Shown in pieces: positions 283 through 53,859 of a DNA stretch of 55,227 nt (position 1 is the first letter of the stretch; each line of letters starts with the position of its first letter). Location of the stretch: positions 1-55,227 of the IMG/VR virus record IMGVR_UViG_2718218434_000004, one strand, 5' to 3'. Below the pieces are notes generated by a model. It was not told the origin of the DNA, made no database searches, and was given only the letters and a program-made list of their open reading frames with translations. The DNA is from a virus. Lineage: Duplodnaviria; Heunggongvirae; Uroviricota; Caudoviricetes. The translations under genes and the position numbers were made by a program.

Positions 283-318
283 TTCTGCCTCTCAGATTAT
301 ATAGATAAGCAAAAAGGT

Positions 319-439: not shown

Positions 440-513
440 ACGCCGTTTAAAAACCGCTAATTATGAGGGACATTCACCAGCACAGGGCTTGTCTAGTGCT
501 GGTTAGGTGCTGC

Positions 514-1142: not shown

Positions 1143-1775
1143 TTAGCTTTAATATCGAGTGGTGGATAGTCCATGGACAAGCTGATGGGCGCACTCGACG
1201 AAAACGATGCGCCAGGCGGACTGTGTCGCTCATAAACCGGGAGTTGGCCAGAGGACTTAGTTGTCCTTTGCAATTCTGCAGGTTCGCACGTGAAAGTAGC
1301 CAAAACCCTGCGAACCTGAGTGCAAACCTGCAACTGCGAACCACTGAGGTGGCCTCTCATAGCTGGTGGTCATACTGGATATTAATCAGGCCTGCCACAA
1401 CCATAACAATCCATAACAGACGCATCGCACCAACAATTACTAATAGGTCCGCTCGCAACACTAATTTTGACTAAGCCTGAACGCAATGCTCAGAAAGAAC
1501 GAAGAATGGAATGAATCGTACCATCATGTTGCTCCATGATTTTTACGTTCAAGACAGTTGCTTAATCTCGCCTCGCAATTCAGCCCCCTTGCCGTTATCG
1601 AGAAGTCTTTCTCCTTACGGTTAATGCTATCGGTCTTCATATTACCAGCAGCATACGCCATCCGATTATTTCGATGCTACGCGCGCGTACTTGTCGCAAA
1701 ATACCAGGCAAAGGCCAGATTCAGAACGTCGTGATAACCACCAGTACAACATGAGAGGTCATGTAACGCGATTTA

Positions 1776-2156
1776 TCACACCAGATACATGTGATTGGTG
1801 TACCCGCATAAAACATCGTCATAGCGCGTCCTGTGCGCATATACGCCGATAATCAACACATCACCACCACTCTGTCTCATGTAGAGAACAGTTTTATGGT
1901 ATCCCCCCGCCATCGTGTGCATACTGGTCGGACGTAGTTGCAAAATTTTTTGCAACTGATACCCCTCGCGCGCGTACTTGTCTCGAAATTGGTGTTTTGC
2001 TGTGGCAGTGATATCAGAAAAATCTTCCTGTTTCACATAAAGCGGATATGCGCGTACTGTAACGGCCCCATCAACGGGGATCGGATTTGAAATCCCGACC
2101 CAAGCTATGTACCAAATGCCATGTCTTGGATATATGATGATTGCCATTCTAAACAA
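1776..2156 (-). CDS. hypothetical protein (doubtful; may be a decayed gene)
   Basis: 126-aa ORF in a coding-poor stretch; a 16-bp segment of it (1967-1982) is duplicated at 1680-1695. Confidence 0.2.
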   Translation of the reverse strand: MFRMAIIIYPRHGIWYIAWVGISNPIPVDGAVTVRAYPLYVKQEDFSDITATAKHQFRDKYAREGYQLQKILQLRPTSMHTMAGGYHKTVLYMRQSGGDVLIIGVYAHRTRYDDVLCGYTNHMYLV

Positions 2157-2175
2157 CGCTAAAGGGAGGGTTGGT

Positions 2176-2574
2176 GTGAATCAATTGAAGCGATTGGTTG
2201 TCTCCGGTTTATTATTTGCTTCTTTTGGAGCGAACGCTGAATGCTGGATTATTGGTGATCTGAAAGGACAAGAAGCCTCAAGTTCAGATGGGTATAACTA
2301 TAAGTTATCATCTATACCAGATACATTTCATTTGGTAATAAGTAAAGAGAAGGCGGATCTTATCTTGGCAAAAGATGGTATAGGTGGAGGTATTGATTAT
2401 TACCCGCTATCTCCGAATGCCATGATGGGAAGAAGCTATCGAGATGGTCAACTGACGCTTGTCACATGGGCAATCTCAAATGACGGAAAAGTGATCCATA
2501 CACGAACAATTAGTCGATCTGATATAGGCTCATTTACAGGCTCATTTGTCGGCAATGTTAAAGGCAAGTGTTAA
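2176..2574 (+). CDS. secreted protein of unknown function (signal peptide)
   Basis: AGGGAGG RBS then GTG at 2176; N-terminus NQLKRLVVSGLLFASFGANA is a signal-peptide pattern. Confidence 0.45.
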   Translation: MNQLKRLVVSGLLFASFGANAECWIIGDLKGQEASSSDGYNYKLSSIPDTFHLVISKEKADLILAKDGIGGGIDYYPLSPNAMMGRSYRDGQLTLVTWAISNDGKVIHTRTISRSDIGSFTGSFVGNVKGKC

Positions 2575-2635
2575 TGTTCATAACTATTTGAAAAAATACT
2601 AATTACTATTATAACCAACCATCCATGGTCATCTG

Positions 2636-4741
2636 TTATTGAGCTTCCTTTTGCGATGCTTGTGCTGCTGTGGTCAGTGATTGTGTGACCGTACTGATCG
2701 CTCTGTCATATGCTGTGCTACCTTTTGGCGTATTTGCCAGACGTAACAAGGCATTTCGTATAACAGGGCTTTCGTATGCCTTCGCTGCTCCGCCTACGGC
2801 ACCAGCAGCAGGAACAACAAACGCAGCCGTTTTTAGCATCCCCGCTAATACTGCTGCGTTTATGATGCCACCACCAACTAACAATCCATAAAGCTGCTGA
2901 CCATTTAAGTTTTGAACGTTCGCTTTTGCCGCGTGTCTTGTATCGTTGAGGTATTTAATAACGCCGTCCAGTTCCTTTCCATGTACGCCTTTAAAGAAAG
3001 TTGCTGATTGCTTCCTGTTCCGGTGTAACGCATTAATAAACTTCTCAACACTGATATTTCCAGACGGATCAGTCGCCTTATCTACAGCATTCTGAACTAT
3101 GGCTGCTCGTGCGTTTTGCCTACCATTGTCATCCAGAAGCCTGTAAAGCTGAGAACGTTCTGATGGGCTTTGGCTAAAAACGAGTTTTGTTACATCCTCA
3201 GGCGTGGCCTTGCCGCTGGCTATTGCCTTTTGAACGCGCGTTCTTCCCATCATGTCATTGAATTTAGACCATGAGCGATCAACCCTTGCCATATTAATGG
3301 CTTCGTCTGCTCCAAGATTTTTGGCTACGGCTTTTTTCATATCCGCCGTATATGCCTTGTAGATAATATCGCTGGCTTTCTGGAGCGTATCTTTATCAAC
3401 AGTGTCAGATGACGCCATAAATCGCTTTCGAAGATCGGTTCTGTTTTCCCTCGCCAGACGCAGGTCATTTGGTCCGCTGGTGATATCGTCTTTAAATTGC
3501 TGCAAGACTTTTACCGCGGCTCTATCCTGAGATTTGCCCGGGCGGCTTAACACGGCAATCTGATTGTCGATAGCTTTTACCGTGTTTGAGAGATCGACAG
3601 GGGTATCCCCCATAGCGTCAATTATGCGGTTATATCGCTTTCCTGCTGCCTCAATGAATTTTTGTTGCCCTTTAGTCGCAGATTCATAAAGCTGTTTATC
3701 AGAAATGCCACCCAGACCATCGCTAAATGTTCTGACTAAATTTTCTCGTGCTTGTTGTTGATTCAGCCGATTCTTACCGGTTCCAAAAAAAGGAACTCTT
3801 TCGCCTAATGTCTGAGCCTGACTCTGCATAAAGGTTTTATCTTTCAGCATGTCACTGGTCATTAACGGCAGATTTCTTTCCGATGCAAAGTTGACAGCAG
3901 CCTTTGCTTCAGGCGACATATCACCACGAACAGCCCTCGAAACCGCACTCGCTGTATTTTCCAGCCCCTTACCAATACCACCAATGCCAGCAGAAATTAC
4001 CGTTTGTAACGGATCAATATCTTCTCCACCAGCAAGGCTGGTGGCTCCCTGTAGTGCTAAATCTGTAGCTGCTGATTTTCCTATGGCACCAAGCACCGTT
4101 CCAGCCCTGCCCGCTGGTGTAAACGCCAGCGCATTAGCCAGAAACGATGCCACGTCTTGCGGCGATAAACCCGGCTTGTTCAGAGCATAATCACCGGATG
4201 GCAGGGAAACGATAGTGTTACCCTTCTCATCCTGCCTTAATTTCGCTCCCATGCTCTGAAGAATCTTTTCCTGAGATGCGTCAGAGCCGAAAAGTTGAGA
4301 CCATCGAGCTTTTAGAGCATCCATGCTGAGTGAGGTTAACTCTGGGGCAAAGTCGACATTTTGCAGTCTCTCCATCTCTGGAGTCATTCGGCTTTCGCCT
4401 GTTATAGCATCGCGCATAGCAGCCCCAAGACTGGCTCCCTGTTCTGCTGAACGCTCAAGCCCCTCTCTTTGCTGAGTAGCTAACTTTGCATACCCTGACG
4501 CAAGAGAATTATCAGATGATGTATGTTGAATATTTTGAGTTGCTGATTGGGATCGGTCTATTTCATTCGTTGATGGTAGTGGATAGGCAGCATAAAAAGC
4601 CTGCTTAGCCTGCTCTACACTTTCTCCGGCTTGCGGGGCAACGACTTCATTGAAGTATTGCTCCTGAGCCTGCGCTTTTTGTTCTGGTGCTAACGCCTGA
4701 TACTGTGGAGAGGCGATAACATCTTTCCATGCTTTAGCCAT
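2636..4741 (-). CDS. uncharacterised 701-aa helical protein with C-terminal Gly/Ala-rich hydrophobic segment
   Basis: Long ORF translationally coupled to the upstream 246-aa ORF; no Walker A motif; segment LLVGGGIINAAVLAGMLKTAAFVVPAAGAVGGAA near the C-terminus. Confidence 0.6.
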   Translation of the reverse strand: MAKAWKDVIASPQYQALAPEQKAQAQEQYFNEVVAPQAGESVEQAKQAFYAAYPLPSTNEIDRSQSATQNIQHTSSDNSLASGYAKLATQQREGLERSAEQGASLGAAMRDAITGESRMTPEMERLQNVDFAPELTSLSMDALKARWSQLFGSDASQEKILQSMGAKLRQDEKGNTIVSLPSGDYALNKPGLSPQDVASFLANALAFTPAGRAGTVLGAIGKSAATDLALQGATSLAGGEDIDPLQTVISAGIGGIGKGLENTASAVSRAVRGDMSPEAKAAVNFASERNLPLMTSDMLKDKTFMQSQAQTLGERVPFFGTGKNRLNQQQARENLVRTFSDGLGGISDKQLYESATKGQQKFIEAAGKRYNRIIDAMGDTPVDLSNTVKAIDNQIAVLSRPGKSQDRAAVKVLQQFKDDITSGPNDLRLARENRTDLRKRFMASSDTVDKDTLQKASDIIYKAYTADMKKAVAKNLGADEAINMARVDRSWSKFNDMMGRTRVQKAIASGKATPEDVTKLVFSQSPSERSQLYRLLDDNGRQNARAAIVQNAVDKATDPSGNISVEKFINALHRNRKQSATFFKGVHGKELDGVIKYLNDTRHAAKANVQNLNGQQLYGLLVGGGIINAAVLAGMLKTAAFVVPAAGAVGGAAKAYESPVIRNALLRLANTPKGSTAYDRAISTVTQSLTTAAQASQKEAQ

Positions 4742-5481
4742 TAATCACCCCATAGTGAAGAAAAGTTACTGCTGGCTGCTGGCTGTGATACCTGCTCAGA
4801 TTGCGGCAATGTCTGCGACGAAGAAGAAGTTCCTCTGTCAACTGCTGAAATAACCCGCAAAGCATCATAAGCTCGACCAGAAGCAGCTTTCAGCGAATTG
4901 AACTGGTTTTCCATCTTCCGGCGCTTGGTATCAATGGTTTTTGTGGAGTCGCCAGGCTGAGGGAAATACATTTGATAATATTTTGACATTTCAGCAGGTG
5001 CGATAGCTGCCCCTGTTTCCTGACGGAGTATTGCCATTATTGCGTCATTAGCATTAACAACGTATTGCTGCTCTGTTGGGCTGAGCGTTAAGTTAGCCAG
5101 CGTCCCATTACCCAAAGCATTATTAATGATCGCCACTCGCTGTGGGCTAAGCTGGTCTTTCAGTGTATCTATTGAATCAAGAGCATCCCTAACCCTGTAT
5201 GCAAATCCAGCAGCTTTTTTAGCCCCTTCTGGCGACTTTTCCATGATCTTTTGGGCTGTTGGCAAAGCTATTGGACGAAACCCATCTCCAGATATTGGCT
5301 GGTTTAGTTTTCCCTGCTCTTCACTTCCGTCTGTGTAGTATTTTGTGACAGTGCCATCATCGTTTTCTCTAACACTCATTAATTTTTTGGCGTTTGTATT
5401 AATTCCAGCCGCTGCCGCAAATGCCGCCGCCCCCTCTGGATCCGCCTTTAACATTTGAGCGTACTGATTGTAATTCTGCAT
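4741..5481 (-). CDS. uncharacterised 246-aa protein, same operon as the primase
   Basis: ORF starts 27 bp after the primase stop and overlaps the start of the 701-aa ORF. Confidence 0.55.
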
Positions 5482-5507
5482 TGCTGCTGTTGGTGCATAT
5501 GCTGACG

Positions 5508-6857
5508 TTAACGCATTTGCTCGGCTACCCCACCAGCTTTAAGTGTGCGCCATCCTTCACGTTCACCAATATCAGCCAGTGGAATGGCAGCGGTTGTCGG
5601 CGTTTCAGAACCAAACGACAGCCAGCGAAGAATGAGATACTGGTCTTTATCGTCTCTGCCAGTACCGATAACGCTTAACGGAGAACATAACCAGCTTTCG
5701 TTATTGATGATTTCTCCACTCTGGCTGTCAGCTCTCGGAGATACCCAATAAATACCATCCTCGCGGCTTTCTATTCTTGGTTTCAGTGGGTCGGTATCCA
5801 TAACCTTAAAATCGCTTCCCTCAATGGTCTGTGGCTCCTGTTTCACGCCATTACCCTGTGGTTGGTACATTGACTTATTGAACGCTTCTGTGGCGCATTT
5901 AATGCCGTGTTTTTGGTGGTAATCATTCCAGTCTGCTTTGTGATCTGTCGGGGGTAATGCCACCCATCCAGAAACAGATAAAGCTGCTTTTTCTGCTGCT
6001 ATTCTCCCCGTGTTTTGTCTTCCTTCGCTGTGGTCGTTATCCGCAGCAATGATGATTTGTGCTGAAGGAAATTTATCCCGCAGTACCTGGGCGACATATA
6101 ACAGGTTCCCGGCATCAATCGCCGCCACTGTCAGCGCCTCTGGACGAATTAAATGGGCAGATAATGCCGTTGCCAGCCCTTCTGCGATTAAGATGCTCTG
6201 TGTTGTTTCTGGCGCGTTTATGGCGTGATATGCCCCCCGCTTTGCTGAACCTGTCAGGAGTCTTTTTTCACCATGTGATGTAATAGTCTGTGCTGCTGTG
6301 ACTGCGCCGGATTTATCCACCAGCGCCAGCAACAGAGATCCATCGGGCAACACGGGGAATGTAAAATCACCTACCCCTTTCGCAACCAGATAATCAGATT
6401 TGCCGTTTACAGCCTTTCTGCGCATGTCATCAAACTGACGGGAAAACGTATCCCGTCTTTGTTGTTCGTCCTTCTCTGCTCTTTTCAGGCGCTCCTGTTC
6501 GCGTCGCTGGCGCTCGGTTTCCAGTTGTTCCCGTTTCTGGCTGGTGGCTTCTGGTGTTTCCGTTGTCCGGTAATCAATACCCAGAACATCAGCGGCAAGA
6601 AGCGCCGCCTCTGTTGTGTCGCAGTTATTTACGCGTTTAATTAAATCCAGCCCATCACCAGCGCCGCACTGATTACAGATGAAGCTACCGCGCCCGTTGT
6701 CATCGAACCGGAATCGATCTTTGCCCCCACATGCAGGGCAGGGAGCATGACGGCGCGGAGAGTCAGGGACATTTATGTTCAGGCAGCCCAGCACATGAGG
6801 CCAGTTGTTTTCAGACGCACTGATAACCTGACGGATAAGATCAATGTTTCGCATCAC
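5508..6857 (-). CDS. DNA primase (zinc-ribbon plus Toprim, P4 alpha N-terminal-like; no helicase domain)
   Basis: [14 protein letters not shown]...[12 protein letters not shown] zinc-binding motif and Toprim-like [17 protein letters not shown] in a 449-aa ORF. Confidence 0.7.
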
Positions 6858-7212
6858 CGTACCCCACGTGGTCTATAGCGTTTGCGATATGGCTAACCAG
6901 CATCTGCCACTTGGTTATTCCGTAATCAGTCAGCATGCCATCATTGTTTAGCCACATATCAAATTCAGCGGTTGTCGCAAGTTTCCACTTATCGCCGTGG
7001 ACAGTCCTCATTGCTGGGTACATGAATGCGCAAATCAGATCACAAACATCTGACGGCTTCAGAGATGTAGTAATGGTGCGTCCCTCTGGCGTCTGAATTG
7101 CCATTTTCTCTTCACCAGTAGAATGAAGGTTATGAATCCACACAGCACCAGCAATCTTTGCCACCTGCTCTCCGATTGCGGAGCTAAGCGCCATTTCTGC
7201 ATTTTCACGCAT
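6841..7212 (-). CDS. hypothetical protein
   Basis: 123-aa ORF in a tightly packed same-strand array upstream of the primase. Confidence 0.4.
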   Translation of the reverse strand: MRENAEMALSSAIGEQVAKIAGAVWIHNLHSTGEEKMAIQTPEGRTITTSLKPSDVCDLICAFMYPAMRTVHGDKWKLATTAEFDMWLNNDGMLTDYGITKWQMLVSHIANAIDHVGYGDAKH

Positions 7213-7546
7213 GAGAACCTCCCGCTACAGTTGCGCCCATGTCATTAACCATGCTTTGCCATATCTCACGCCCGACGTCAGTCAATCCGTCCTTAGTGAC
7301 GCAACGCTCAAGAAGCTCGATCCCCACGGTTTCCCACTGCGGGTAGAACACTTTCATGGCTGCCAGTGTGTAGCTATCGATCAGGCTGCGAACGCCTTTT
7401 ACTCCATTAACGATTTCCACACGTACGGCCTCGCCGTCCGCATCAACCATGAAATAGTCCCCGCCGCTGGTGGAGGTAATGTGGTTATACAGTGCCGACG
7501 CATACTTATTTGCCAGCGCATTCAGTCGGAAATTTTTAGTAATCAT
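7205..7546 (-). CDS. hypothetical protein
   Basis: 113-aa ORF, overlapping gene junctions typical of phage operons. Confidence 0.4.
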   Translation of the reverse strand: MITKNFRLNALANKYASALYNHITSTSGGDYFMVDADGEAVRVEIVNGVKGVRSLIDSYTLAAMKVFYPQWETVGIELLERCVTKDGLTDVGREIWQSMVNDMGATVAGGSHA

Positions 7547-7556
7547 GGCTCCATCC

Positions 7557-8159
7557 TCAGTGCGTCACTGGTTCCGCTGGCATGCCGTTTTCATTCAGTT
7601 CAGCTATAAAGCTGTTGTGAAGTTCAGCAAGCGTTTCACGACCAAATGGAGTCAGTGCTCCTTGTTCCACATCCATCATGGCTCTGTAGAAAATGATGGC
7701 GCGTTCTGTGCCAGACTCGATGCCAAAACGTTCTATCATCGCTCCCTCAATGTTGTTTGCCATAGCGAGGCGCTCTGCTACTGGATACAGCGGCATGGCG
7801 ACGATGCCGTTGGAATAAACAGCCACTTCGGAAGGATTGCCAGTATCATCAATGATGCTGACAGTGCCGTTTTCCTCTCTCATTTCCAGCATGAATACTG
7901 TTGCGATCAGCCATCTCCACATAATGACGTTATGCTGTGATGTGTAATCGAAATATCCCTGGTTGCCGCCATCGGCAATAGCGAGATGTATTGACATACC
8001 TTCATCTGGTTTATCGTCATAATCCCCGGCATCCAGACGATTTACGGCATCAATATATGAGACGGCCTCAACGCGTTCTGTCATGCCATCGTTGCTGCGG
8101 TACATGATGTTTACGCCGTCAGGCGTTGCTTCTGTATGGAAAGTTAAGAAATTATTCAT
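7557..8159 (-). CDS. hypothetical protein
   Basis: Start set at internal ATG (MNNFLTF...) just after the upstream gene's stop; the longer ORF would overlap it. Confidence 0.4.
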   Translation of the reverse strand: MNNFLTFHTEATPDGVNIMYRSNDGMTERVEAVSYIDAVNRLDAGDYDDKPDEGMSIHLAIADGGNQGYFDYTSQHNVIMWRWLIATVFMLEMREENGTVSIIDDTGNPSEVAVYSNGIVAMPLYPVAERLAMANNIEGAMIERFGIESGTERAIIFYRAMMDVEQGALTPFGRETLAELHNSFIAELNENGMPAEPVTH

Positions 8160-8373
8160 GTTTCGCCTCGCCTGAATGATTCTGTAACTCATATTTGCCC
8201 AACAATTCGTCCGCTTCATGAATAGCTTCTGGTACGCCATTGAGCAGTGACATAACCGCGCCAATCATTAACTTGTCTCTGTTGCTGGGGCTGGCCCCTT
8301 CAAGCCAGAACCCTAAAACAGTCTGAACCTGTTCGATGCGACATTGCGCTTCAATGAGCTGGATGTTGGTCAT
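8152..8373 (-). CDS. hypothetical small protein
   Basis: 73-aa ORF in the same-strand array. Confidence 0.35.
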   Translation of the reverse strand: MTNIQLIEAQCRIEQVQTVLGFWLEGASPSNRDKLMIGAVMSLLNGVPEAIHEADELLGKYELQNHSGEAKHE

Positions 8374-8633
8374 TTCGCACTCTCCACATCGATTAAACCG
8401 ATATCTATCAGGGAGGTAACTTTTTGTAGCCAGCTATTGATTACTGTCGCCTGTTCCCCGCCCACCGAGGGAACAATCTCATTCATCACATGAACCAGAC
8501 CTGTGCGCGCTCTGGTAAGCCGTTCAGTCGCGCAATCTGCGGGAGTGAATGTGTCTGGATATGGCTCTTCACGCCCCAGCAATGATTCAATTTCCAGCTC
8601 ACACGGATGACGATAAATTAAGTTGATATTCAT
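8370..8633 (-). CDS. hypothetical small protein
   Basis: 87-aa ORF, 4-bp overlap with neighbours. Confidence 0.35.
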   Translation of the reverse strand: MNINLIYRHPCELEIESLLGREEPYPDTFTPADCATERLTRARTGLVHVMNEIVPSVGGEQATVINSWLQKVTSLIDIGLIDVESAK

Positions 8634-8824
8634 TTTTCACCACCAAGAATTACCAGCTCTGCACGGGCATCGTTAACCAAAGATGAGCACGCTTTAATCG
8701 CATCCACGACATCAGCAGCGTCCATTTCTTCAGCCGAAAGACTGACAGCAACCAGGACAGCCGCTGCTTGCTCGATTAATTGAAGTGCGGACGTAAGGCG
8801 AGGGGTATTAATTGAGTTATTCAT
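8630..8824 (-). CDS. hypothetical small protein
   Basis: Start set at MNNSINTPRL; overlaps the stop of the upstream gene. Confidence 0.35.
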   Translation of the reverse strand: MNNSINTPRLTSALQLIEQAAAVLVAVSLSAEEMDAADVVDAIKACSSLVNDARAELVILGGEK

Positions 8825-9035
8825 TGGTTGCCCCCGTTTTGCATGGCATTTGTCCACCTTCCAGCAGGAAATGAACGTCACGAACGGCGAGGTCCAATAT
8901 CGCGAGTAACGCCTTCAGTTTTTCGTCTCGTGAGGGAGAGTTGCTCACCAGAATGTCATTAATCACTTCTGTCAGTGTGATGATCTGGCTTGTGCGTTCG
9001 AGGGGGTCCATATGCACATCGTAGGTTTTAATCAT
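8817..9035 (-). CDS. hypothetical small protein (C-terminal part of the 355-aa ORF)
   Basis: Internal ATG at 9035 preceded by a GGAGGTGG RBS; downstream 72 aa look protein-like. Confidence 0.4.
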   Translation of the reverse strand: MIKTYDVHMDPLERTSQIITLTEVINDILVSNSPSRDEKLKALLAILDLAVRDVHFLLEGGQMPCKTGATNE

Positions 9036-9884
9036 GTGCCACCTCCATGCGGATACGACCAGCAAAAAAGCAGATGTGATCGCGCACCAGAGAACGGCGA
9101 GCATCGCGTTCAGACTCGGCAGCAATATGATGAATTTTGGCGGTAATTGTCGGGCAATCGCGGCGAACTGCGGCGATAATCCAGATAAATTGCGTTTTTT
9201 GGGTAGGGGTAGTAGCCAGCATGTGGCAGCCTCCTTCAGATAGCAGGTTACGCTACCACCGGAAACGCCAATTTCGCTGGTGGTAGCCCAGACAGGGTTG
9301 GCGTAACCGGCTCTGAAGGATACCGGCGCTTCCGAAGAAGCCCCCGCCTGAGCCACCATTGATTGACAAAGGCGCTGGATTATACACCAACGCCCAAAAA
9401 ATGGGTGAGTCAGACCTACGACATAAAAAAAGACGCTCGGCGCGTCATATGTCGCCTTCAGAATTTTCAGGACGCCAATCCCGGCACCCGTTTTATGAGG
9501 TGCCTTATAACCATAAACCGTGTTGCCGCATAACGGCAAGCTCTTTTTTATGGACTCCGAAAACTCACTATTGGAAGAACCAGAAGCACAGTACATCGCG
9601 CTCATTTCGTTAACGTCACGCGCGTGGACGAAGGTTTTTGTGGAGTCACTACACGAGCAGAGAAAGCCATCTACGACCAGAAATTCTCTGGCATAGCCGC
9701 TGACCTTCTCAACGCTAACACCATCGACCGTAATTTCTGACATAGTTAAGGCATCCGCTCCTACCACCAGCAAATGATAAACTTTGCTTGTATCTGCTGT
9801 ATTAATGTCTGACTTTGCTGTCATATTGCTGGATTTTGGCGACATACCAGCCAGTGAAAATATCTTCTTCTGGGCGGTTAGCAT
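9036..9884 (-). CDS. hypothetical protein, 3' boundary uncertain (possibly frameshifted)
   Basis: N-terminal about 160 aa of ORF 8817-9884 look protein-like; the central part is Cys/Trp/Pro-rich like out-of-frame translation. Confidence 0.25.
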
Positions 9885-10147
9885 TTGTTAACCTCCGCGA
9901 ACTCCTTCATGAAACGTGCCAGCGGTTGTACGCATGGCGATTGATACCCGTCGCGATAAAACGTCACTCGGTTGTGAGACACGCTTTCGACAGTAACGAG
10001 TGCTCCGTGGGCATCTTTGTAGCGTTTTTGAGGTTGTGGTGTTCCTGTCGGCTTAAACATGGACCGCCTCCAGACGCTTGGCGAGCCAGCGTTGCGACAG
10101 GCGGGTGAGTTCTCCTTTGCGCTGCTCATATTCCATGCCCATATCAA
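9878..10147 (-). CDS. hypothetical small protein
   Basis: 89-aa ORF between the antirepressor and the small-gene array. Confidence 0.3.
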   Translation of the reverse strand: MIWAWNMSSAKENSPACRNAGSPSVWRRSMFKPTGTPQPQKRYKDAHGALVTVESVSHNRVTFYRDGYQSPCVQPLARFMKEFAEVNKC

Positions 10148-10886
10148 TTAACGTGATATTGGTGCTTTCGAGATATGAGAGGTGCTCAAGCTGTTCTGCG
10201 TTCATATGGTCGCGAGGTTCGCCAGAATAGCCATTTATCCGCGCCCACTGCTTAGCAGTTAGCCCACCAAGAACGATACGAGAAATCATATTGCTCTCGT
10301 TTGTGTAGTGGTGTTGCTGCGTCGTTTTCCCCATCTCGGCACGGGCCATATTCAGCGCATCGCACATTGGCTTAAAGTTGTTTGCGGCACTGATACGGGC
10401 TTTTAGCTGGCGACGATAGCGGGCGGCGATTTCAGGCACGCTACGCTGTAATTCTTCCTCGCACTGGATGAAATAACGACGGATAGCGCGACCCTGATCA
10501 TTGCGTTCGATCATTGCCAGTTCTTTCGCCATTCCGACACTTAACAGATAGTCTTTGCCGGGTCTGCCAGACTGCTTAATCTTGCTGTAAGCCGCGCCAT
10601 TCGGGCTTTTCCCCAAATTTGGGGAAATTGTTTTATGGACTGAGTAATCGTGCCCAATGGTGAAGTCATATTCAGAGATGCGATCAGTGATCCATGTAGA
10701 GAAGTCTTTTCCCACGCCCAACGCTTTGTGTAACGCTTTTGCGCTAACAATATTGGTTTCACGCCCACCGATATGACCAGGAATAACCGGGACAATTGCG
10801 GCAAATTCATTACCGTTAATTGTGCCCAGAGAGGCGTTCAGATGAGGGGCAGCCTCAGAAATTAATCTGCTTTTTTCGATGTTCAT
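10053..10886 (-). CDS. phage antirepressor (AntA/AntB N-terminal plus KilA-C type)
   Basis: 277-aa ORF; sequence pattern consistent with Ant/KilAC antirepressors (recalled, not searched). Confidence 0.55.
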   Translation of the reverse strand: MNIEKSRLISEAAPHLNASLGTINGNEFAAIVPVIPGHIGGRETNIVSAKALHKALGVGKDFSTWITDRISEYDFTIGHDYSVHKTISPNLGKSPNGAAYSKIKQSGRPGKDYLLSVGMAKELAMIERNDQGRAIRRYFIQCEEELQRSVPEIAARYRRQLKARISAANNFKPMCDALNMARAEMGKTTQQHHYTNESNMISRIVLGGLTAKQWARINGYSGEPRDHMNAEQLEHLSYLESTNITLIDMGMEYEQRKGELTRLSQRWLAKRLEAVHV

Positions 10887-10898
10887 TTTCAGTCTCCG

Positions 10899-11330
10899 TT
10901 AGGCGGCGTTAAACGCGTCCGGGTAGAGTTTCAGAATGTCGGCAATTTCCTGCTGAGAAAGTCCGTTGTGATCATTTATGTTCGCAAGATGGTTAATATG
11001 AGTGATCACTTTCAGAACATCACCACGGCAGGAGAAACGGTAGCGAAGGTGTGTTCCGATACCATCAGGATTCTTTTCGTCGATACGCTCCAGAGTGATT
11101 CCAAGCTGGCGTTCTAACTCTGTTGCATAGTTACGACCAGAAGACAGACGGCAGTAGCGAAGAATGTCGTTTTCTGTCCATCCCTCTATACCAGTTCGCA
11201 GCATATAGACTCGGGCACGATGCTTTTTCGGTGTGCGCTTTGGTGCTTGAAGGGATTTTGTAAGGGGCGTAATATCAGATACGCGAATATCTGAATTAGC
11301 CGCCTGTAATGGGCGGTTTTTCTTTTCCAT
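10899..11330 (-). CDS. hypothetical protein (basic N-terminus, possible DNA-binding regulator)
   Basis: 143-aa ORF immediately downstream of alpA in the same operon. Confidence 0.4.
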   Translation of the reverse strand: MEKKNRPLQAANSDIRVSDITPLTKSLQAPKRTPKKHRARVYMLRTGIEGWTENDILRYCRLSSGRNYATELERQLGITLERIDEKNPDGIGTHLRYRFSCRGDVLKVITHINHLANINDHNGLSQQEIADILKLYPDAFNAA

Positions 11331-11533
11331 CAGGCCACCTCGTCTCTAGATTCTAATATACACTTCTCAATCCATTCATCTATTTCAGACTCAACAAAAG
11401 CAATAGCCCGACTTCCAATTTTTACCTGTTTAGGGAACCTCCCCTGACTAATAAGACGATAAATCCATGCTTTGCTATAACCAGTTCGCCTTTGAACTTC
11501 AGAGAGACGAATTAATGAATTGTAATTAGCCAT
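11330..11533 (-). CDS. alpA: AlpA-family transcriptional regulator / excisionase-like
   Basis: 67 aa, LIRLSEVQRRTGYSKAWIYRLISQGRFPKQVKIGSRAIAF; sits beside a P4-type integrase as in CP4-57. Confidence 0.65.
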   Translation of the reverse strand: MANYNSLIRLSEVQRRTGYSKAWIYRLISQGRFPKQVKIGSRAIAFVESEIDEWIEKCILESRDEVA

Positions 11534-11622
11534 TTATTAATATCCTGTACTAATGACGCAATAACCCCCTCCTGCAACGAATGGCGAGAGTTTTATTTGC
11601 GTCAAATGTCGAATACGCCAAA

Positions 11623-11662
11623 GACCACAATATGAAAAACATATTGCGGTCTTTTATAAAAG
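11623..11662 (+). terminator. hairpin plus T-run (terminator-like) in the int-alpA intergenic region
   Basis: GACCACAATATG-aaaaa-CATATTGCGGTC followed by TTTTATAAAAG; no plus-strand gene upstream. Confidence 0.3.
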
Positions 11663-11960
11663 ATAGTCAGATTGTTTTGGTTTGTTTGCTCCACAAGGGT
11701 AGAGCTACCCTGCATTTCGGCAGGATCACGCTATTAGGCGTGACATCCAGTAGTTTTAAAGAACAATTGCGCTTTGTCAGCGCCAAAGCCTGTTAAAGAA
11801 CATTCCGCTTTTCAGCAGCGTAGAAGGCTCAATACACCTTCGTTTATAAAAGAGCGATTGCCCTTCTCCAGGGCTAACTGTTAAATAGCAATCCTCTGTG
11901 AGTTTTTATCAATCTACTCCCCTATACTTTAGTAAACCTCTGTATACTTGTCCAGTTGTT

Positions 11961-13175
11961 TCATGCGTGTTTTTCAAACACCATATGCACCACATTTCCG
12001 CCATGCTCGAGAGAATCCATATAGTCGGCATACCATTGAAGCATCTCCCGCCTTCCATCCAGATATTGCGCATGGTTGTATGTGCCACGAATTGAGTTCT
12101 TATCAACGTGAGCGAGCTGAGTTTCTATCCACGCAGTGTTATAGCCCTGCTCATGCAAAATCGTACTCATAGTGTGCCGGAACCCATGACCAGTTACACG
12201 TCCAGCGTAGCCAATGCGCTTAAACACTTGGTTTATGCTGGCCTCACTCATTGTTTTCCTTGGATCATTGCGCCCGGGAAACATAAGAGGGTAATTGCCT
12301 GTTATTTCTCTAATCTTCCCAATAAGCGAAAGAGCCTGCTCAGACAATGGCACAATATGAGGCCGCCGCATTTTCATACGTGAAGCGGGTATCTCCCAGA
12401 TAGCCTTGTTGAAATCAATTTCATCCCATAATGCGCCACGTAGTTCGCCAGTTCGCAAGCCGGTGATAATCAGTAGACGAGCCGCCATAACAACCAATGC
12501 GCTTCCTGAGTAACTGGACAATGCCTTGAAAAAATCAGGTAATTCTTTGGCTGTAAGGAAAGGGTAATGATTAGATTCATGGCCTTGCATCGCGCTAGTA
12601 AGGTCTGGTGCAGGGTTATACTCTGCGCGACCAGTGACTATTGCATAGCGGAAAACTTCCCCGCACCGCTGCCTCACTTTTTTGGCTTTTTCTGTAGCAC
12701 CTCGCCCCTCGATGCGCCGCAGCACATTCAGAAGTTCAAGTGGTTTGATTTCGGCGATTGGTTTTTTGCCAATGTAAGGGAACACATCTTTGTTGAAGGC
12801 TTCGAGGATGTCTGAAGCATAACCAGCAGACCATTTTTTTAATTTGCTGCTGTGCCACTCAAGGGCAATATCTTTGAAGGTGTTGTTTAACTGCGTTTCC
12901 CGGGCAATCTTTTCCTCTCGTTTCGCTTCCATCGGATCGATACCACCAGCGATACCTCTTTTCGCATCTTCACGTTTTGCCCGAGCATCGGCTAGAGTAA
13001 CCTCAGGATACACACCTAGTGCCAATAGCTTCTCTTTACCAGCTACACGATATTTAAGTCGCCAGTATTTACCTCCATTAGGTTTTACCAAGAGATACAA
13101 ACCGCCACCATCGGCCAGCTTGTAAGCCTTCTCTTTTGGCTTGGCTGTGTCTATTTGACGGGCATTGAGTTTCAC
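11961..13175 (-). CDS. int: P4-family tyrosine integrase
   Basis: 404 aa; N-terminus MKLNARQIDTAKPKEKAYKLADGGGLYLLVKPNGGKYWRLKYR is the P4/CP4-57 integrase signature; C-terminal R..H..R..Y catalytic region. Confidence 0.85.
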   Translation of the reverse strand: MKLNARQIDTAKPKEKAYKLADGGGLYLLVKPNGGKYWRLKYRVAGKEKLLALGVYPEVTLADARAKREDAKRGIAGGIDPMEAKREEKIARETQLNNTFKDIALEWHSSKLKKWSAGYASDILEAFNKDVFPYIGKKPIAEIKPLELLNVLRRIEGRGATEKAKKVRQRCGEVFRYAIVTGRAEYNPAPDLTSAMQGHESNHYPFLTAKELPDFFKALSSYSGSALVVMAARLLIITGLRTGELRGALWDEIDFNKAIWEIPASRMKMRRPHIVPLSEQALSLIGKIREITGNYPLMFPGRNDPRKTMSEASINQVFKRIGYAGRVTGHGFRHTMSTILHEQGYNTAWIETQLAHVDKNSIRGTYNHAQYLDGRREMLQWYADYMDSLEHGGNVVHMVFEKHA

Positions 13176-13240
13176 TTGGGGGTACCTCCACTAAACCGAA
13201 CAGCAAATACCCCCATAAGTACCCCCATCTGACCGTAGAT

Positions 13241-13323
13241 TTTGAGGGACTTTAGTAGACGTCAAAAGACGAACGGGGCTTTAATACGCGGATTATAATG
13301 GGTTTTGAAAGACTTTAGTAGAC
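13241..13323. repeat. two 20-bp direct repeats TTTGA(G/A)(G/A)GACTTTAGTAGAC (13241-13260, 13304-13323); putative integrase arm sites
   Basis: Near-identical repeats 63 bp apart between the integrase start and the att core. Confidence 0.5.
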
Positions 13324-13338
13324 TTGGGGAGATGTTTG

Positions 13339-13386
13339 AATGGTGCCGATAATAGGAGTCGAACCTACGACCTTCGCATTACGAAT
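13339..13386. repeat. att site: 48-bp direct repeat of the thrW 3' end (junction between element A and prophage B)
   Basis: Identical to 53782-53829; sequence diverges immediately outside both copies. Confidence 0.85.
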
Positions 13387-13779
13387 TATAAGAATCCACT
13401 TCTAATTCAAAGCATTACCCCATCAACACTGCGCTCACACGTCCCACCACATCAAAACATGTAAAGCCTTGCAAGCCATTGCGAGGCCTTATGTGTCTCA
13501 GTTTTGTCCCACCTTGTATTACGACTTGCATAGCCAATGAAGATAAACGTGACGACAAACGGCGCAGCAGTCTTCTTTTCCTTCATACTTTCCCCACCCA
13601 GCATGCATACCTTTATGCCATAACTGAAGTTTATGTCTGTTATGAGCGATGAGCGGAAGTTCACTACTTCATGACTAACATTGAAGTGTCCTAAGCAACG
13701 GGGAGCAGCTCAAGGAGTGTGTTAGTGCAATTACACTAACACAGCTACTAAAAATAAAAATACCAAAACTACAGTTATT

Positions 13780-15246
13780 CTATGCGCCTGGATTGGGTTC
13801 GATCATACTCAGCGTTTTTGCTATTTTCTTAATCTCATCATCATTATCCAAAAAAGAGGCGTCTTTTATTACCACAGTACGCTCTTCTTGTAATAGCTCA
13901 CCTATTTTTTCTTCTATAAAATCTAAGGTTGGCATTATAATCTGGATGTCTCGAGAAAAAGTAGTTTTTGCATCTTCTATACTGTTGAATCCATTATGTA
14001 TATGAGTGAATATTCTCTTTTTAAACTGTATGTCTTCTGGATTTCCCACTAACTGACTGAAATCTCCTTTCATAACTCTTTCGCTTGTTTCAAAGAGCTG
14101 TATTGCTATCGAGTCGATTAATTCCTTTTTGGACAGAGATGCTTGTTCATAAAATTTGGTGACTAACTCTGTTGGCAACTTTCTTGAGACGACTTTAATG
14201 GACAGTCTCTGAAATAGGTAAGGTGCCACCACGCCCACACTGAAAGGGTGAATCCTCCCTGGATTTAATAATTTTATTGTGACGTTTTCAAAAACTAGCT
14301 CATTGATTTTACTATTTATGAATTCCATTAAATACTTATCTAATGATAATGTTACCGACGCAACCGCTTCTATCACTTGTTTAAATGGCTCGCCTTTCAA
14401 GGATTTAAAAAACTCTTTGTTATAACCAAAGAAATCCACAAAACCTAAATTTATTCGATTTTCTTCTTTAGTATTTGAAATGCGAATTTGAAGTTGTTTT
14501 AAGTCTTCATCGGTCAAGTATTTTAAACCATAGTCATCAAGCGCGTTACGTATAACTTTATCTGCAGATTCTAAGTCGATTACAGTTTTTACATTAAAAA
14601 ACAATGATAACAATGAATCATACTTATGAACTCGCAAGGTTAAATCTGTTGCATTTGATGCGGTTACATTTATCCGTCTCAAAAGATCAATAACTTTACT
14701 AATTGGTAGGCTGTTTTCAAAAATTTTGAATGACTCGTATTCAGATACAACATCTTTTATATACTTACTGATAGTATCAGACTTTATTTCCACCTCAACT
14801 TCGGTTGAGTAAGAATGAATTAGTGAGTTTGTAGTTTCAGCGATGTCATTTGATACATACAACTTATATTCGAAACAATCAGGAGCGGGAAGCAAACTAT
14901 TATCAATAATGGAAAACAATAAAAATTTAATTATTTCTCTTAATGCTTGCGGTCTAGTTATTCTACCTTGCATTTTTTTACATTGTATTAAACCACTTAC
15001 AACACCGTTATGGTATAGCACGCAGTCGCGTCCTCTTTCAGAAACTCCTTGCATTAAAGATATTGAGGATATATTTTTATGCTTTCCATCTTCAATTTCG
15101 TTCTTTACTAACAAATAACATAGCAACTCAAATTCTCGATCACCTAATTCTGAAAAGGGAAGCAATCCGATACCAGAATCTATAGTCCATGGTCTATATC
15201 CTGATTGAGCCTCGATATTAATTTGTTCGTCACTGATTTTTTTCAC
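13780..15246 (-). CDS. Mrr-cat-like PD-(D/E)xK nuclease domain fused to a roughly 380-aa uncharacterised domain (candidate restriction/defence protein)
   Basis: AT-rich 488-aa ORF; N-terminal FELLCYLL...GVSERGRDCVLY...GLIQCKK matches the Mrr catalytic-core pattern. Confidence 0.6.
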   Translation of the reverse strand: MKKISDEQINIEAQSGYRPWTIDSGIGLLPFSELGDREFELLCYLLVKNEIEDGKHKNISSISLMQGVSERGRDCVLYHNGVVSGLIQCKKMQGRITRPQALREIIKFLLFSIIDNSLLPAPDCFEYKLYVSNDIAETTNSLIHSYSTEVEVEIKSDTISKYIKDVVSEYESFKIFENSLPISKVIDLLRRINVTASNATDLTLRVHKYDSLLSLFFNVKTVIDLESADKVIRNALDDYGLKYLTDEDLKQLQIRISNTKEENRINLGFVDFFGYNKEFFKSLKGEPFKQVIEAVASVTLSLDKYLMEFINSKINELVFENVTIKLLNPGRIHPFSVGVVAPYLFQRLSIKVVSRKLPTELVTKFYEQASLSKKELIDSIAIQLFETSERVMKGDFSQLVGNPEDIQFKKRIFTHIHNGFNSIEDAKTTFSRDIQIIMPTLDFIEEKIGELLQEERTVVIKDASFLDNDDEIKKIAKTLSMIEPNPGA

Positions 15247-15561
15247 TTAAATCTCCTTCTAATCTTATTGACCTACTCCCTACATTGTAACAGGGGATGA
15301 TGATAAGGTGTATCTTTCGAGCTATAAGCACGATAAATAAGTGATTAAAAATGACTCTTTAAACTATTTTAATTTAAAAAATTAATTGTTAGTTCTAATT
15401 ATGGTATGAGGGCATTTTCGGCATAGTTCTAACCATATACTTTGGTAAAAATGACTGTTACGGAACAGACCATAGTAATGCCTGCTATTGGCACGGAGCG
15501 GGCTGCCTGAGCGCCGTGGGGTCTGCAAACGGTAAGCATACCGATAACTATACGCTTGGCC

Positions 15562-15981
15562 TTAGTAACTTTTGCTCCCCTCAATAAATCCGCCATCTTT
15601 TATCGGACTGCAATGTCCTTCTTCATCAATCAGTTGCTCGTCTTTCAGGTAGGTATATCGATAGATAATTGAGCCATTATCCATCTCACCATTGGTTCGT
15701 TTCATTAGGAGAGTAAAATGTAACGGGCTGTCCCTATATCGAGCTATTCCATGAATATTGGCAAGTACCTCATATTGACGCTCAGGTGATAACCCTTTAA
15801 ATACATCGAGATATCCATGGAATGTTCCATAGAGTGAAGAAGTGTAGATCAGTCGCTGCTCTGGACCAGTAACTTTAAGAGTAATTTGTTCACCCGTATT
15901 ACAGGTTAGCTTGGCGGGAAATGTCTCAGCCTGAGCAGAAGAAATAGTCAAGCTTAAAATTATCAGGTAGCAATATTTCAT
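15562..15981 (-). CDS. secreted protein of unknown function
   Basis: Start at ATG 15981 (MKYCYLIILSLTISSAQA-ETF) gives a signal peptide; AT-rich, own intergenic regions. Confidence 0.5.
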   Translation of the reverse strand: MKYCYLIILSLTISSAQAETFPAKLTCNTGEQITLKVTGPEQRLIYTSSLYGTFHGYLDVFKGLSPERQYEVLANIHGIARYRDSPLHFTLLMKRTNGEMDNGSIIYRYTYLKDEQLIDEEGHCSPIKDGGFIEGSKSY

Positions 15982-16389
15982 GTGATTAGAATGTCCAAAA
16001 CTAACATGTATACTCGGGATTCTATAACTAGTTGGATGTAGACCCAAGATGTATTGGACTATTCTTCGGTTGTAGTTGGTCAAATCATATATTTTATGTC
16101 AGCAATGTCTACTTTTGGCACATAGCAGACCAGAGACACTGGCGTAAAGCCATGGAGGATCGGTGGGAGGAGGTAAAAATCCTCTCATGCAAAAAATACG
16201 CAAAATCGATAACAGTTGGAAATCATTCAATACTCGCACTATCGGAAGTTCACCAGCCAGTCGTAGCACGTTCTTGCATATGACGTGGCTACGGGTTTCG
16301 AGACCGACCCGATCATCAAACGAAACATAAAATTAGCTCACATTATGAGGAAAGGTATCTTTTTGCGCTATGTAAATTCAAAGGGTTAG

Positions 16390-17259
<870 letters not shown>

Positions 17260-17319: not shown

Positions 17320-17874
17320 TCATTTATCTCCGACCGGAAACTTCTTATACAGTGTCGATATACCAACATCATAGATGATCGCCACCTTCTGGCGAGGAAC
17401 GCCTGATGCAATTAATCGCCCGGCCTGCGCCCATTGTTCTGGTGTAAGTTTGGGACGACGTCCACCAATTCGTCCCTGTGCGCGAGCAGCTTCCAGTCCA
17501 GCTTTTGTTCGTTCAACAATCAGTTCTCGTTCCATTTCAGCCAGGGCACCCATGACATGAAAAAAGAAACGGCCCATTGGGGTACTGGTATCAATACTAT
17601 CAGTCAGGCTTCGGAAATTCACGCCACGCTGGCGCAACTCTTCTATCAGCGTAACAAGATGCCGCATACTGCGCCCTAACCTGTCCAGCTTCCAGACAAC
17701 CAGAGTGTCACCTGCCGATAATGTCCTGAGCAGTTTTTTCAGTCCGGGCCTTTCGGACTTCGTACCGCTTATCTTGTCTTCAAAAATCAGTTCACATCCT
17801 ACACAGTTCAACGCATTACGTTGTAGATCGGTGTTCTGGTCATTTGTTGATACGCGTACATAGCCAATAAGCAT
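17320..17874 (-). CDS. pin: DNA invertase, serine recombinase (Pin/Gin/Hin family)
   Basis: MLIGYVRVSTNDQNTDLQRNAL... resolvase N-terminus plus C-terminal HTH; 184 aa. Confidence 0.85.
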   Translation of the reverse strand: MLIGYVRVSTNDQNTDLQRNALNCVGCELIFEDKISGTKSERPGLKKLLRTLSAGDTLVVWKLDRLGRSMRHLVTLIEELRQRGVNFRSLTDSIDTSTPMGRFFFHVMGALAEMERELIVERTKAGLEAARAQGRIGGRRPKLTPEQWAQAGRLIASGVPRQKVAIIYDVGISTLYKKFPVGDK

Positions 17875-52379: not shown

Positions 52380-52729
52380 TGGAGCCATACAGCCTCACAC
52401 TCGATGAGGCCTGTCATTTTCTCAAGATATCCAGACCGACTGCCATTAACTGGATACGCACAGGGCGTCTTCAGGCAACACGCAAAGATCCCACTAAGAA
52501 TAAATCTCCTTACCTCACAACACGACAAGCCTGCATTGCGGCGCTTCAGTCTCCGCTGCATACTGTCCAGGTGAGCGCGGGTGATGGCATAACAGAGGAA
52601 AGAAAATGTCACTCTTCCGCAGAGGTGAAATATGGTACGCCAGTTTCACATTGCCGAACGGTAAAAGATTTAAACAGTCTCTTGGAACAAAGGACAAAAG
52701 GCAGGCGACAGAACTCCATGACAAGCTAA
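52379..52729 (+). CDS. xis: excisionase (P22 Xis-like)
   Basis: Start at [37 protein letters not shown]; overlaps the integrase start. Confidence 0.7.
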
Positions 52730-53769
52730 AGGCTGAAGCATGGCGGGTCAGCAAACTTGGTGAAATACCTGATATAACGTTCGAGGAAGCGTGTGTCAGG
52801 TGGCTTGAAGAGAAAGCACATAAAAAATCACTGGACGATGACAAAAGCCGGATCGGATTCTGGCTTCAACATTTCGCAGGAATGCAACTAAGAGACATTA
52901 CTGAATCAAAAATTTATTCAGCAATGCAGAAAATGACGAACCGGCGTCATGAGGAAAACTGGAAACTCAGGGCAGAAGCATGCAGAAAAAAAGGGAAACC
53001 TGTTCCAGAATACACGCCAAAACCAGCGTCCGTTGCAACGAAGGCTACGCATCTTTCATTTATAAAGGCCCTACTAAGAGCCGCAGAGCGTGAATGGAAA
53101 ATGCTGGATAAGGCACCAATTATTAAAGTGCCTCAACCAAAGAATAAACGGATCCGCTGGCTGGAGCCCCATGAAGCACAAAGGCTGATTGATGAATGTC
53201 CGGAGCCATTAAAGTCTGTTGTTGAATTTGCACTGGCAACAGGCTTAAGACGCTCGAACATCATCAACCTTGAATGGCAACAAATAGATATGCAGCGCCG
53301 GGTGGCATGGATAAACCCGGAAGAGAGTAAATCAAACCGCGCAATTGGCGTTGCGCTGAATGATACTGCATGTCGCGTATTGAAAAAACAAATCGGGAAT
53401 CATCACCGTTGGGTATTTGTGTACAAGGAAAGCTGTACCAAACCAGACGGAACGAAAGCGCCAACAGTAAGGAAGATGCGGTATGACGCAAACACAGCCT
53501 GGAAAGCGGCGCTGAGACGGGCTGGTATTGATGATTTCAGATTTCACGACTTGAGACACACCTGGGCAAGTTGGCTGGTTCAAGCCGGAGTCCCGTTGTC
53601 AGTTTTACAGGAAATGGGAGGCTGGGAGTCTATCGAAATGGTTCGTCGATATGCTCACCTTGCACCTAATCACCTTACCGAACACGCACGGCAAATAGAC
53701 TCGATCCTGAACCCATCGGTCCCAAATTTGTCCCAGTCAAAAAATAAGGAAGGTACTAATGATGTGTAA
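52606..53769 (+). CDS. int: tyrosine integrase (P22-type, thrW-specific)
   Basis: 387 aa; [35 protein letters not shown]-terminus; C-terminal [10 protein letters not shown]...Y region; ends 15 bp from thrW. Confidence 0.9.
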
Positions 53770-53781
53770 CTTATTGATTTT

Positions 53782-53829
53782 AATGGTGCCGATAATAGGA
53801 GTCGAACCTACGACCTTCGCATTACGAAT
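53782..53829. repeat. att site: 48-bp thrW 3'-end repeat (tRNA-proximal copy)
   Basis: Identical to 13339-13386. Confidence 0.85.
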
Positions 53830-53859
53830 GCGCTGCTCTACCAACTGAGCTATATCGGC
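53784..53859 (-). tRNA. thrW: tRNA-Thr (anticodon CGU)
   Basis: 76-nt reverse complement GCCGATATAGCTCAGTTGGTAGAGCAGCGCATTCGTAATGCGAAGGTCGTAGGTTCGACTCCTATTATCGGCACCA folds as a cloverleaf with CGT anticodon and CCA end. Confidence 0.9.

Follow-up and report, generated by a model that had tools for sequence, protein, structure and literature searches.

Endonucleases of the Mrr family are defined by three motifs, F-E (I), D-x-G-x-D (II) and Q-x-K (III), the last of which replaces (D/E)-x-K, and the upstream acidic residue of motif II serves as a marker specific to Mrr (Smith et al., PMC2790908). Heads of this kind (Mrr_cat) have been noted on STAND proteins encoded in satellite hotspots (PMC9122126). 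Avs proteins, which are of the STAND type, are reported to oligomerise upon binding phage proteins. In the Lamassu complex, the effector LmuA is monomeric and inactive; it becomes an active tetramer via its C-terminal domain, and that tetramer pairs two heads on DNA (PMC12663957). A stand-alone nuclease gene, mcrA, is carried near the end of prophage e14, and the enzyme is an HNH nuclease with an N-terminal domain that reads 5-methylcytosine (5mC) (PMC6182155). Here we describe ORF488, an open reading frame (ORF) of 488 codons that joins a predicted Mrr-family head to a helical tail and lies at the end of an E. coli prophage. It was analyzed within a 55,227-nucleotide stretch of DNA (IMG/VR record IMGVR_UViG_2718218434_000004, positions 1 to 55,227; hereafter the window), which represents the thrW-proA region of E. 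coli. We regard it as probable that ORF488 is an anti-phage nuclease of some kind. By analogy with the systems above, the chances are about even that it is a stand-alone, normally silent nuclease in which the tail would sense infection and drive self-assembly.

The protein is listed in RefSeq as WP_000723924.1 ('hypothetical protein') in E. coli D2, with identical ends (Table 1). Its start position is the same in the aligned homologues. Within the family, the ratio of nonsynonymous to synonymous substitution rates (dN/dS) is 0.05–0.17 in the head, the extension and the tail (pairs with unsaturated dS), showing that ORF488 is under purifying selection. The gene is intact and functionally constrained along its whole length. 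Its G+C content is 33.5%, compared to 51.7% for the remaining prophage and 49.8% for the window, and it is bordered by non-coding flanks of 393 bp (13387-13779) and 315 bp (15247-15561). The low G+C and the separate intergenic regions described in the original prediction, a note made from the DNA letters alone, are both borne out. A consensus promoter scan of the upstream region found no strong or convincing sigma-70 site.

The N-terminus of ORF488 is a predicted PD-(D/E)xK nuclease of the Mrr family, as first proposed, because the motifs, the profile matches of homologues, an alignment to E. coli Mrr and the predicted fold all point to it. The strings cited in support of the proposal do occur in the protein, at aa 39 (FELLCYLL), aa 71 (RGRDC) and aa 87 (IQCKK). 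Residues E40, R71-G72-R73-D74-C75, Q88-C89-K90, E104 and K107 are among those invariant in 45 aligned members; within motif II, G72 and D74 do not vary, and position 70 is acidic (Glu, in some members Asp) in at least 90% of members. The AlphaFold2 (AF2) model of ORF488 has a mean predicted local distance difference test score (pLDDT) of 85.7 and displays a classical restriction-endonuclease core, in which E40 lies in helix 1, D74 at the start of strand 2, Q88-x-K90 in strand 3, and E104 and K107 in the next helix. An hhalign comparison of the head profile with E. coli Mrr gave an E value of 9e-4 over 107 columns (Mrr residues 163-273), and 23 of 45 homologues match the Pfam family Mrr_cat (PF04471) at E ≤ 0.1, the best at 5.7e-6. 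Precomputed Pfam domains are found in just one family member (P0107), where the domain is again Mrr_cat. Against Mrr_cat, whose gathering threshold is 21 bits, the fused relatives P0162 and P0185 reach 22 and 24.8 bits, respectively. No nuclease match was returned when the whole protein and two profiles (A1 and A3) were compared with PDB sequences. The nuclease fold was recovered by profile and by Foldseek searches, the former finding the Mrr core and the latter giving LmuA chains as top matches of the model, while the tail, when searched separately, gave no detectable relative. The nuclease fold also resembles those of Cap4, Card1 and Can2.

Two described enzymes come closest to the core itself. 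E. coli Mrr has all three motifs, the same fold, and a following helix with conserved Glu and Phe, and in LlaGI (Type ISP, with LlaBIII) the motif spacing is nearly that of ORF488. Both are built differently, however. The nuclease of Mrr follows a winged-helix DNA-binding domain and forms the C-terminus, and that of LlaGI stands at the head of a helicase-methyltransferase enzyme; none of these additional parts is present in ORF488. In the helical extension that follows the core, aa about 154-236 (window about 14539-14787) gave a repeated, borderline match to 3mcs_A, a 'putative monooxygenase' (E 0.001–0.002), perhaps by chance.

An exhaustive HMMER profile search of 1.84 billion cluster representatives (E ≤ 1e-3) retrieved 706 proteins. 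About 60 of the best 150 match profile positions 1-237 alone, with E values of 1e-66 to 1e-40, and always at the extreme N-terminus of proteins of 360–1608 aa that are longer or differently tailed. Among the head relatives that were sampled, some continue into NACHT, NB-ARC or nSTAND NTPases from around residue 270, in part followed by TPR, and others into the CTD12 or CTD7 domains of ABC-three-component (ABC-3C) systems, which is the architecture of LmuA. The remainder carry pentapeptide repeats or no recognisable family. Judged by this homology, the head of ORF488 is a module held in common with STAND/NLR-like ATPases and with Lamassu/ABC-3C effectors. Its presence in proteins of LmuA architecture explains why the PADLOC model for LmuA (PDLC03852) is matched by 37 of 45 family members (best E 2.1e-9), and why these matches are limited to the N-terminal effector half, at model positions of about 18-170 of 336.

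The likeness to Avs-type STAND proteins covers the whole 237-residue head (E down to 1e-66), and the ORF488 head is probably activated as theirs is, by induced proximity. However, the STAND proteins are 840–1600 aa long and possess an NTPase and a TPR or repeat sensor, whereas ORF488 has 488 aa, and neither an NTPase nor a TPR family was detected in it or in its full-length homologues. Membership of ORF488 in Avs was considered and rejected on account of the missing NTPase; the long relatives that were sampled are likewise not called by PADLOC as named Avs families. With LmuA, ORF488 shares a two-part plan of N-terminal nuclease head and helical C-terminal domain. In LmuA, though, the latter is an ABC-3C domain that docks on LmuB/LmuC, and the tail of ORF488 is unrelated to it. 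No gene for LmuB (an SMC-like ABC ATPase) or LmuC is present in the window, and none is conserved across the 26 loci examined below. Upx, a terminase-sensing nuclease, was also considered as a relative, but it exceeds 1100 aa, has its nuclease at the C-terminus and is unrelated.

The approximately 380 aa beyond the catalytic core had been described as lacking any motif. No recognisable family is indeed found there, but the stretch is not uniform, as it divides into a head extension of about 100 aa (aa 136-235) and a tail of 250 aa. In the AF2 model the pLDDT falls to 58–61 at aa 221-250, a linker between the two, and the homology of the protein P0120 to ORF488 is limited to aa 1-233, so that both place the head/tail boundary at the same point. 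The tail contains the conserved motifs LDDYGLKxLTDxDLK, RxNLGxVDFFGY, IHPFSV, GDYSxLxG and RTxVIKDxSFFDD. Its isoelectric point (pI) is 5.3 and its net charge −6 (family median −5), an acidity that speaks against a reader which binds DNA. The tail gave no sequence match in Pfam, NCBIfam or the PDB, and ORF488 as a whole had no NCBIfam match. When aligned by hhalign to ABC-3C CTD12/CTD7 proteins the probability was <1%, and there was no similarity to LmuA structures. Two sub-threshold hits in helical regions of the protein were rejected, namely Pfam 2CompART (E 0.042) and PADLOC WYL (E about 0.003, in 7 of 45 members).

The original prediction held ORF488 to be a stand-alone gene, and its surroundings in other genomes agree. 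For 26 loci from five phyla, we clustered every ORF of 70 aa or more that lies up to 8 kb away from the gene. No conserved partner gene emerged, and no neighbour family occurred in more than five of the 26 loci. The recurrent neighbours were integrases (the commonest), common signalling proteins, and antisense ORFs within the gene itself. Small ORFs (at least 25 aa) within 700 bp were not conserved either, and no adjacent ORF was antitoxin-like. ORF488 is a stand-alone gene. Its homologues are found in varied mobile settings. In Stutzerimonas the gene lies in a small integrase islet, in Burkholderia it occurs with an integrase fragment, and in Enterobacter it is in a P2-like prophage remnant, near an OLD-family gene and a retron-like reverse transcriptase-ATPase pair. 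The Acinetobacter homologue is on an island, adjoining a PAAR-domain gene and umuDC-like SOS genes; that of Pseudomonas cerasi is located terminally in a P2-like prophage, adjacent to a Dam-type methyltransferase; and that of Agrobacterium (25% identity) is carried by a conjugative plasmid. In Pseudomonas sp. TH43 (locus L029, 3725-6884), complete Gabija genes for GajA (E 1.7e-196) and GajB (E 1.4e-165) are directly upstream of the homologue. In a metagenome-assembled genome of Syntrophaceae (L022, 10798-12582), a PNP-phosphorylase effector fused to TPR is encoded about 1.3 kb downstream, with one 431-aa gene in between.

In the window, a myovirus-type prophage occupies the span between tRNA-Thr(cgt) and the distal att repeat (Table 1). 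Its tail, baseplate, ymfQ, tail-fibre and pinE genes are at the end opposite the integrase, and ORF488 is the final prophage gene before the repeat. The att site postulated for this position is real, as 48 bp from the 3' end of the tRNA gene recur there without a mismatch. Reading outward from pinE, the order is PD-T4-3, a capsid-gene fragment, a gene for a 139-aa protein, ORF488 and att; of the three cargo genes, ORF488 lies furthest out. The gene for PD-T4-3 directly adjoins pinE, 1.2 kb from ORF488, and its ORF opens at 16435. PD-T4-3, whose role in defence is validated, has been renamed CMoRE, a type IV enzyme against DNA containing 5-hydroxymethylcytosine (5hmC) and glucosyl-5hmC (2026, PMC12923530). 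In e14 of strain MG1655, the order is ymfQ-stfP-tfaP-tfaE-stfE-pinE-mcrA-att. The original prediction assigned ORF488 to the position of mcrA, and it does lie between att and pin, but the gene beside pinE is that for PD-T4-3. The direct positional counterpart of e14 mcrA is therefore PD-T4-3/CMoRE, with ORF488 as an additional cargo gene nearer to att. McrA and ORF488 are nevertheless alike in being stand-alone nuclease genes in a pin-to-att cargo slot, beside a related tail-fibre/invertase module; since McrA combines an HNH nuclease with a 5mC reader, the two are not homologous.

The contents of the slot differ between strains. In E. coli 2018-06-4CC (L016, 3132-5808) it holds genes for a type II restriction endonuclease and a cytosine methyltransferase, without ORF488, and in an O157 strain an AraC regulator and an insertion sequence (IS) element. 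While PD-T4-3 and pinE are found in many E. coli genomes, ORF488 is present in 29 of 5426 complete ones. The pinE-to-att end is a variable swap site for defence cargo, and ORF488 sits in this slot as originally envisaged. It has recently been suggested that small serine recombinases of the Pin kind mark defence genes (PMC13552941). Strain CX15 has CP4-6-like DNA beyond ORF488 in place of the P4/PICI-like island of the window, and this difference indicates that ORF488 belongs with the prophage side. Counting all loci, the defence-linked cases are PD-T4-3, the restriction-modification pair in the slot, Gabija and the PNP effector, and the mobile settings include P2-like prophages, integrases and the ends of viral contigs. 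At least part of the ORF488 family appears to reside in defence-rich mobile cargo slots.

Table 1. Coordinates of ORF488, its parts and other features of the window.
Feature	Coordinates	Strand	Remarks
ORF488 coding sequence	13780..15246	-	complete, 488 aa, GTG start, stop codon 13780-13782
Shine-Dalgarno AAGGAG	15253..15258	-	6 nt 5' of the ORF488 GTG, direct reading of the sequence
AT-rich upstream intergenic region, presumed own promoter of ORF488	15247..15561	-	315 bp
Mrr-family PD-(D/E)xK catalytic core (predicted), aa about 30-135	14842..15159	-	alpha-beta-beta-beta-alpha-beta
Mrr motif I, F39-E40	15127..15132	-	invariant in solo and fused families; pairs with Mrr F-E172
Mrr motif II, E70-R-G72-R-D74	15025..15039	-	pairs with Mrr D199-G201-D203
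Mrr motif III, Q88-C89-K90 (QxK)	14977..14985	-	invariant; pairs with Mrr Q219-x-K221
Helical extension of nuclease head, aa 136-235	14542..14841	-	always moves with the core as one module (aa 1-237)
C-terminal domain, aa 236-488	13783..14541	-	all-helical, acidic; proposed sensor/assembly domain
139-aa hypothetical protein	15562..15981	-	signal-peptide-like N-terminus MKYCYLIILSLTISSAQA; between ORF488 and PD-T4-3
Short capsid-gene fragment	about 16195-16281	-	among cargo genes
PD-T4-3/CMoRE GIY-YIG type IV restriction endonuclease	16486..17259	+	PADLOC PD-T4-3 E 2.7e-140, full profile; Pfam LEM-3_GIY-YIG
pinE small serine invertase	17320..17874	-	inner boundary of cargo slot; module order as in e14
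Distal att repeat	13339..13386	.	exact 48-bp copy of tRNA-Thr(cgt) 3' end (53782-53829)
tRNA-Thr(cgt), intact gene	53784..53859		
Prophage integrase	52606..53769		adjoins tRNA-Thr(cgt)
P4/PICI-like island integrase	11961..13175		
P4/PICI-like island AlpA-like gene	11330..11533		

The 139-aa protein accompanies ORF488 in E. coli and is absent beside homologues elsewhere; it had no Pfam or PADLOC match, and it is not a conserved partner of ORF488. In strains ECONIH5 and 2021CK-01361, the region matching the slot is interrupted by ISSen4, IS5 and ISEsa2. These IS insertions and the capsid fragment are signs of repeated rearrangement in the slot. The thrW site of the window is a tandem array, in which the myovirus prophage is followed by the P4/PICI-like island (1-13338). 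Besides the genes in Table 1, the island carries antA/B, ash and a disrupted primase, and its outer end is beyond the window. In E. coli O157 644-PT8 (L017, 394-2094), an integrase island beside a thrW prophage remnant carries an ABC-3C system consisting of an AAA ATPase, middle component 2 and an ABC-3C protein. The effectors of such systems can bear the same nuclease head as ORF488. A sequence of strain CX15 deposited as 'plasmid unnamed5' (NZ_CP081745.1, L041) was considered as a true plasmid copy and rejected, as it is an 18-kb, linear, frameshift-ridden duplicate of the chromosomal baseplate-pinE-ORF488-CP4-6 region; the record is most likely an assembly artefact.

A homologue search of 5.8 billion proteins gave 120 matches, nearly all of them 483–491 aa long and alignable end to end, down to 32% identity. 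The hosts include Enterobacterales, Pseudomonas, Acinetobacter, Vibrio, Burkholderia and Bacteroidota, and a genome scan added Campylobacterota and Syntrophia. This patchy spread over five phyla, together with the rarity of the gene in E. coli, fits a horizontally moving accessory cargo. Homologues are present in eight IMG/VR viral contigs, and in six of these the gene is within about 5 kb of a contig end. The homologue of Pantoea sp. Eser, a stink-bug symbiont (L036, 7992-9203), is broken into two ORFs (249 and 148 aa); in the genome of this host-restricted symbiont it has the look of a pseudogene. Source databases name the family members as hypothetical, apart from two UniRef entries called 'DUF4297' and one called 'restriction endonuclease'. 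The features by which CBASS Cap4/DUF4297 proteins are recognised, a DUF4297 nuclease with a SAVED sensor or a HerA partner, were not found for ORF488. A search of PADLOC-DB v2.0.0 (2023), with newer catalogues outside its scope, gave no system call and no full-length significant match, and a literature search found no paper naming WP_000723924. The suggestion that the family is undescribed has held up so far: the family, its architecture and its tail appear to be new, while the nuclease head and the general logic are already known.

How might such a protein act? In the scheme that we favour, ORF488 would consist of two modules, the Mrr-family head (aa 1-237) and the helical tail of 250 residues, the latter taking the place of the NTPase-plus-repeat sensor of STAND proteins or the SMC-dependent tail of Lamassu. 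It would be made constitutively in the lysogen from its own promoter and remain silent. Upon infection by another phage, the tail would recognise a phage-made cue and self-associate, and the paired heads would then cut double-stranded DNA without sequence specificity, halting phage replication and probably sacrificing the cell (abortive infection). The head would have to be kept silent, because no methyltransferase, immunity protein or antitoxin accompanies ORF488. By analogy with the relatives of the head, we infer for ORF488 a nuclease activity, a DNA substrate, autoinhibition, oligomerisation, this role for the tail and a defence phenotype. A comparable arrangement, in which an inactive PD-(D/E)xK nuclease is switched by a fused regulatory domain and an oligomeric change, exists in Shedu SduA, Cap4 and Card1/Can2. 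Those proteins differ in using DUF4263, SAVED or CARF domains, which ORF488 lacks, along with any match to their PADLOC models, and there is no gene for a signalling enzyme near ORF488. We consider it possible, although doubtful, that the tail is a new, NTPase-independent infection sensor, a compact helical module with an as yet undescribed mode of recognising a conserved signal of phage or of host perturbation.

Several observations weigh against this scheme. Taken singly, ORF488 matches no nuclease family in Pfam, not even Mrr_cat at E ≤ 1, and its own match to the PADLOC LmuA model is weak (E 0.0036). A fold comparison of the tail gave no structural relative pointing to a role in sensing or in assembly. 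The tail was not seen on other effector heads, either among the best 150 of the 706 proteins or by a word-index search with the tail profile, which gave family fragments only; the short, tail-only matches of the HMMER search are also fragment-like. A tail not seen joined to other heads offers no support for a portable sensor. It is also evenly and strongly conserved, which is unusual for a domain engaged in an arms race with phages. Several homologue loci are flanked solely by housekeeping genes, with no defence gene nearby, and no homologue was found in 50,697 sequenced phage genomes.

An alternative is that ORF488 is a type IV, modification-dependent enzyme, in which the tail would read modified bases and the Mrr head would cut such DNA, with survival of the host. 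The Mrr-family head and the example of McrA in the equivalent slot bring this reading to mind, but no SRA, winged-helix, YTH or other modification-reading or DNA-binding fold was detected in aa 136-488, and the acidity of the tail speaks against it as well. By sequence, the head is closest not to type IV enzymes but to the effector heads found at the N-termini of STAND and ABC-3C immune proteins, and Mrr, MspJI and AspBHI carry their nuclease at the C-terminus. Moreover, a dedicated type IV enzyme, PD-T4-3/CMoRE, already adjoins, although a second one with another specificity is possible. Altogether we think this reading unlikely, and the evidence favours a sensor-activated (abortive-infection-type) nuclease as the candidate function.

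We give about the same low weight to a role outside defence, whether as an addiction toxin of the prophage or island, as a nuclease for the element's own DNA transactions, or as a decaying gene in E. coli. Such a role would suit the homologues that lie among housekeeping genes, the split copy in the Pantoea insect symbiont and the low frequency of the gene in E. coli. On the other hand, no antitoxin-like ORF is adjacent; the family shows no tie to a particular phage module, occurring in prophages of the myovirus and P2-like kinds, in integrase islets and on a plasmid; the catalytic residues are invariant and selection is purifying along the whole length; and the head otherwise occurs on immune proteins. 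That ORF488 is instead an effector subunit, inert without a partner encoded elsewhere (a Lamassu-like SMC/ABC ATPase or other sensor), would accord with the LmuA matches in Foldseek and PADLOC, the true ABC-3C tails of some head relatives and the ABC-3C system beside the same thrW prophage remnant in O157, but it is improbable given that the LmuA likeness extends no further than the effector half at the N-terminus of the model, that the tail is unlike both CTD12/CTD7 and LmuA structures, that no ABC/SMC ATPase or other gene is conserved nearby in 26 loci from five phyla, and that reliance on an unlinked partner is unlikely in a gene that moves horizontally by itself.

Candidates for single-gene defence are numerous and ORF488 is still one of them, so the claim made here is a moderate one. 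If the stand-alone, sensor-activated nuclease is confirmed, it would represent a one-gene defence family spread by prophages, integrative islets and plasmids over at least five bacterial phyla. The slot between the invertase and att of e14-like tail modules, from which McrA, PD-T4-3/CMoRE, a restriction-modification pair and ORF488 are now known, could be mined for further candidates. One nuclease head under three kinds of control, by a STAND ATPase, by the Lamassu SMC machinery and by a small helical tail, also makes for a natural comparison, which could reveal the minimum needed to silence an immune nuclease and to fire it upon infection. Were the tail indeed a sensor, it would do the job of the approximately 1000 residues of STAND ATPase and repeats in Avs, or of the SMC complex in Lamassu, and the fact that it barely varies between Bacteroidota and E. 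coli would suggest that the trigger itself is highly conserved. As the tail has no known relative, that trigger could reveal a new mode of phage sensing.

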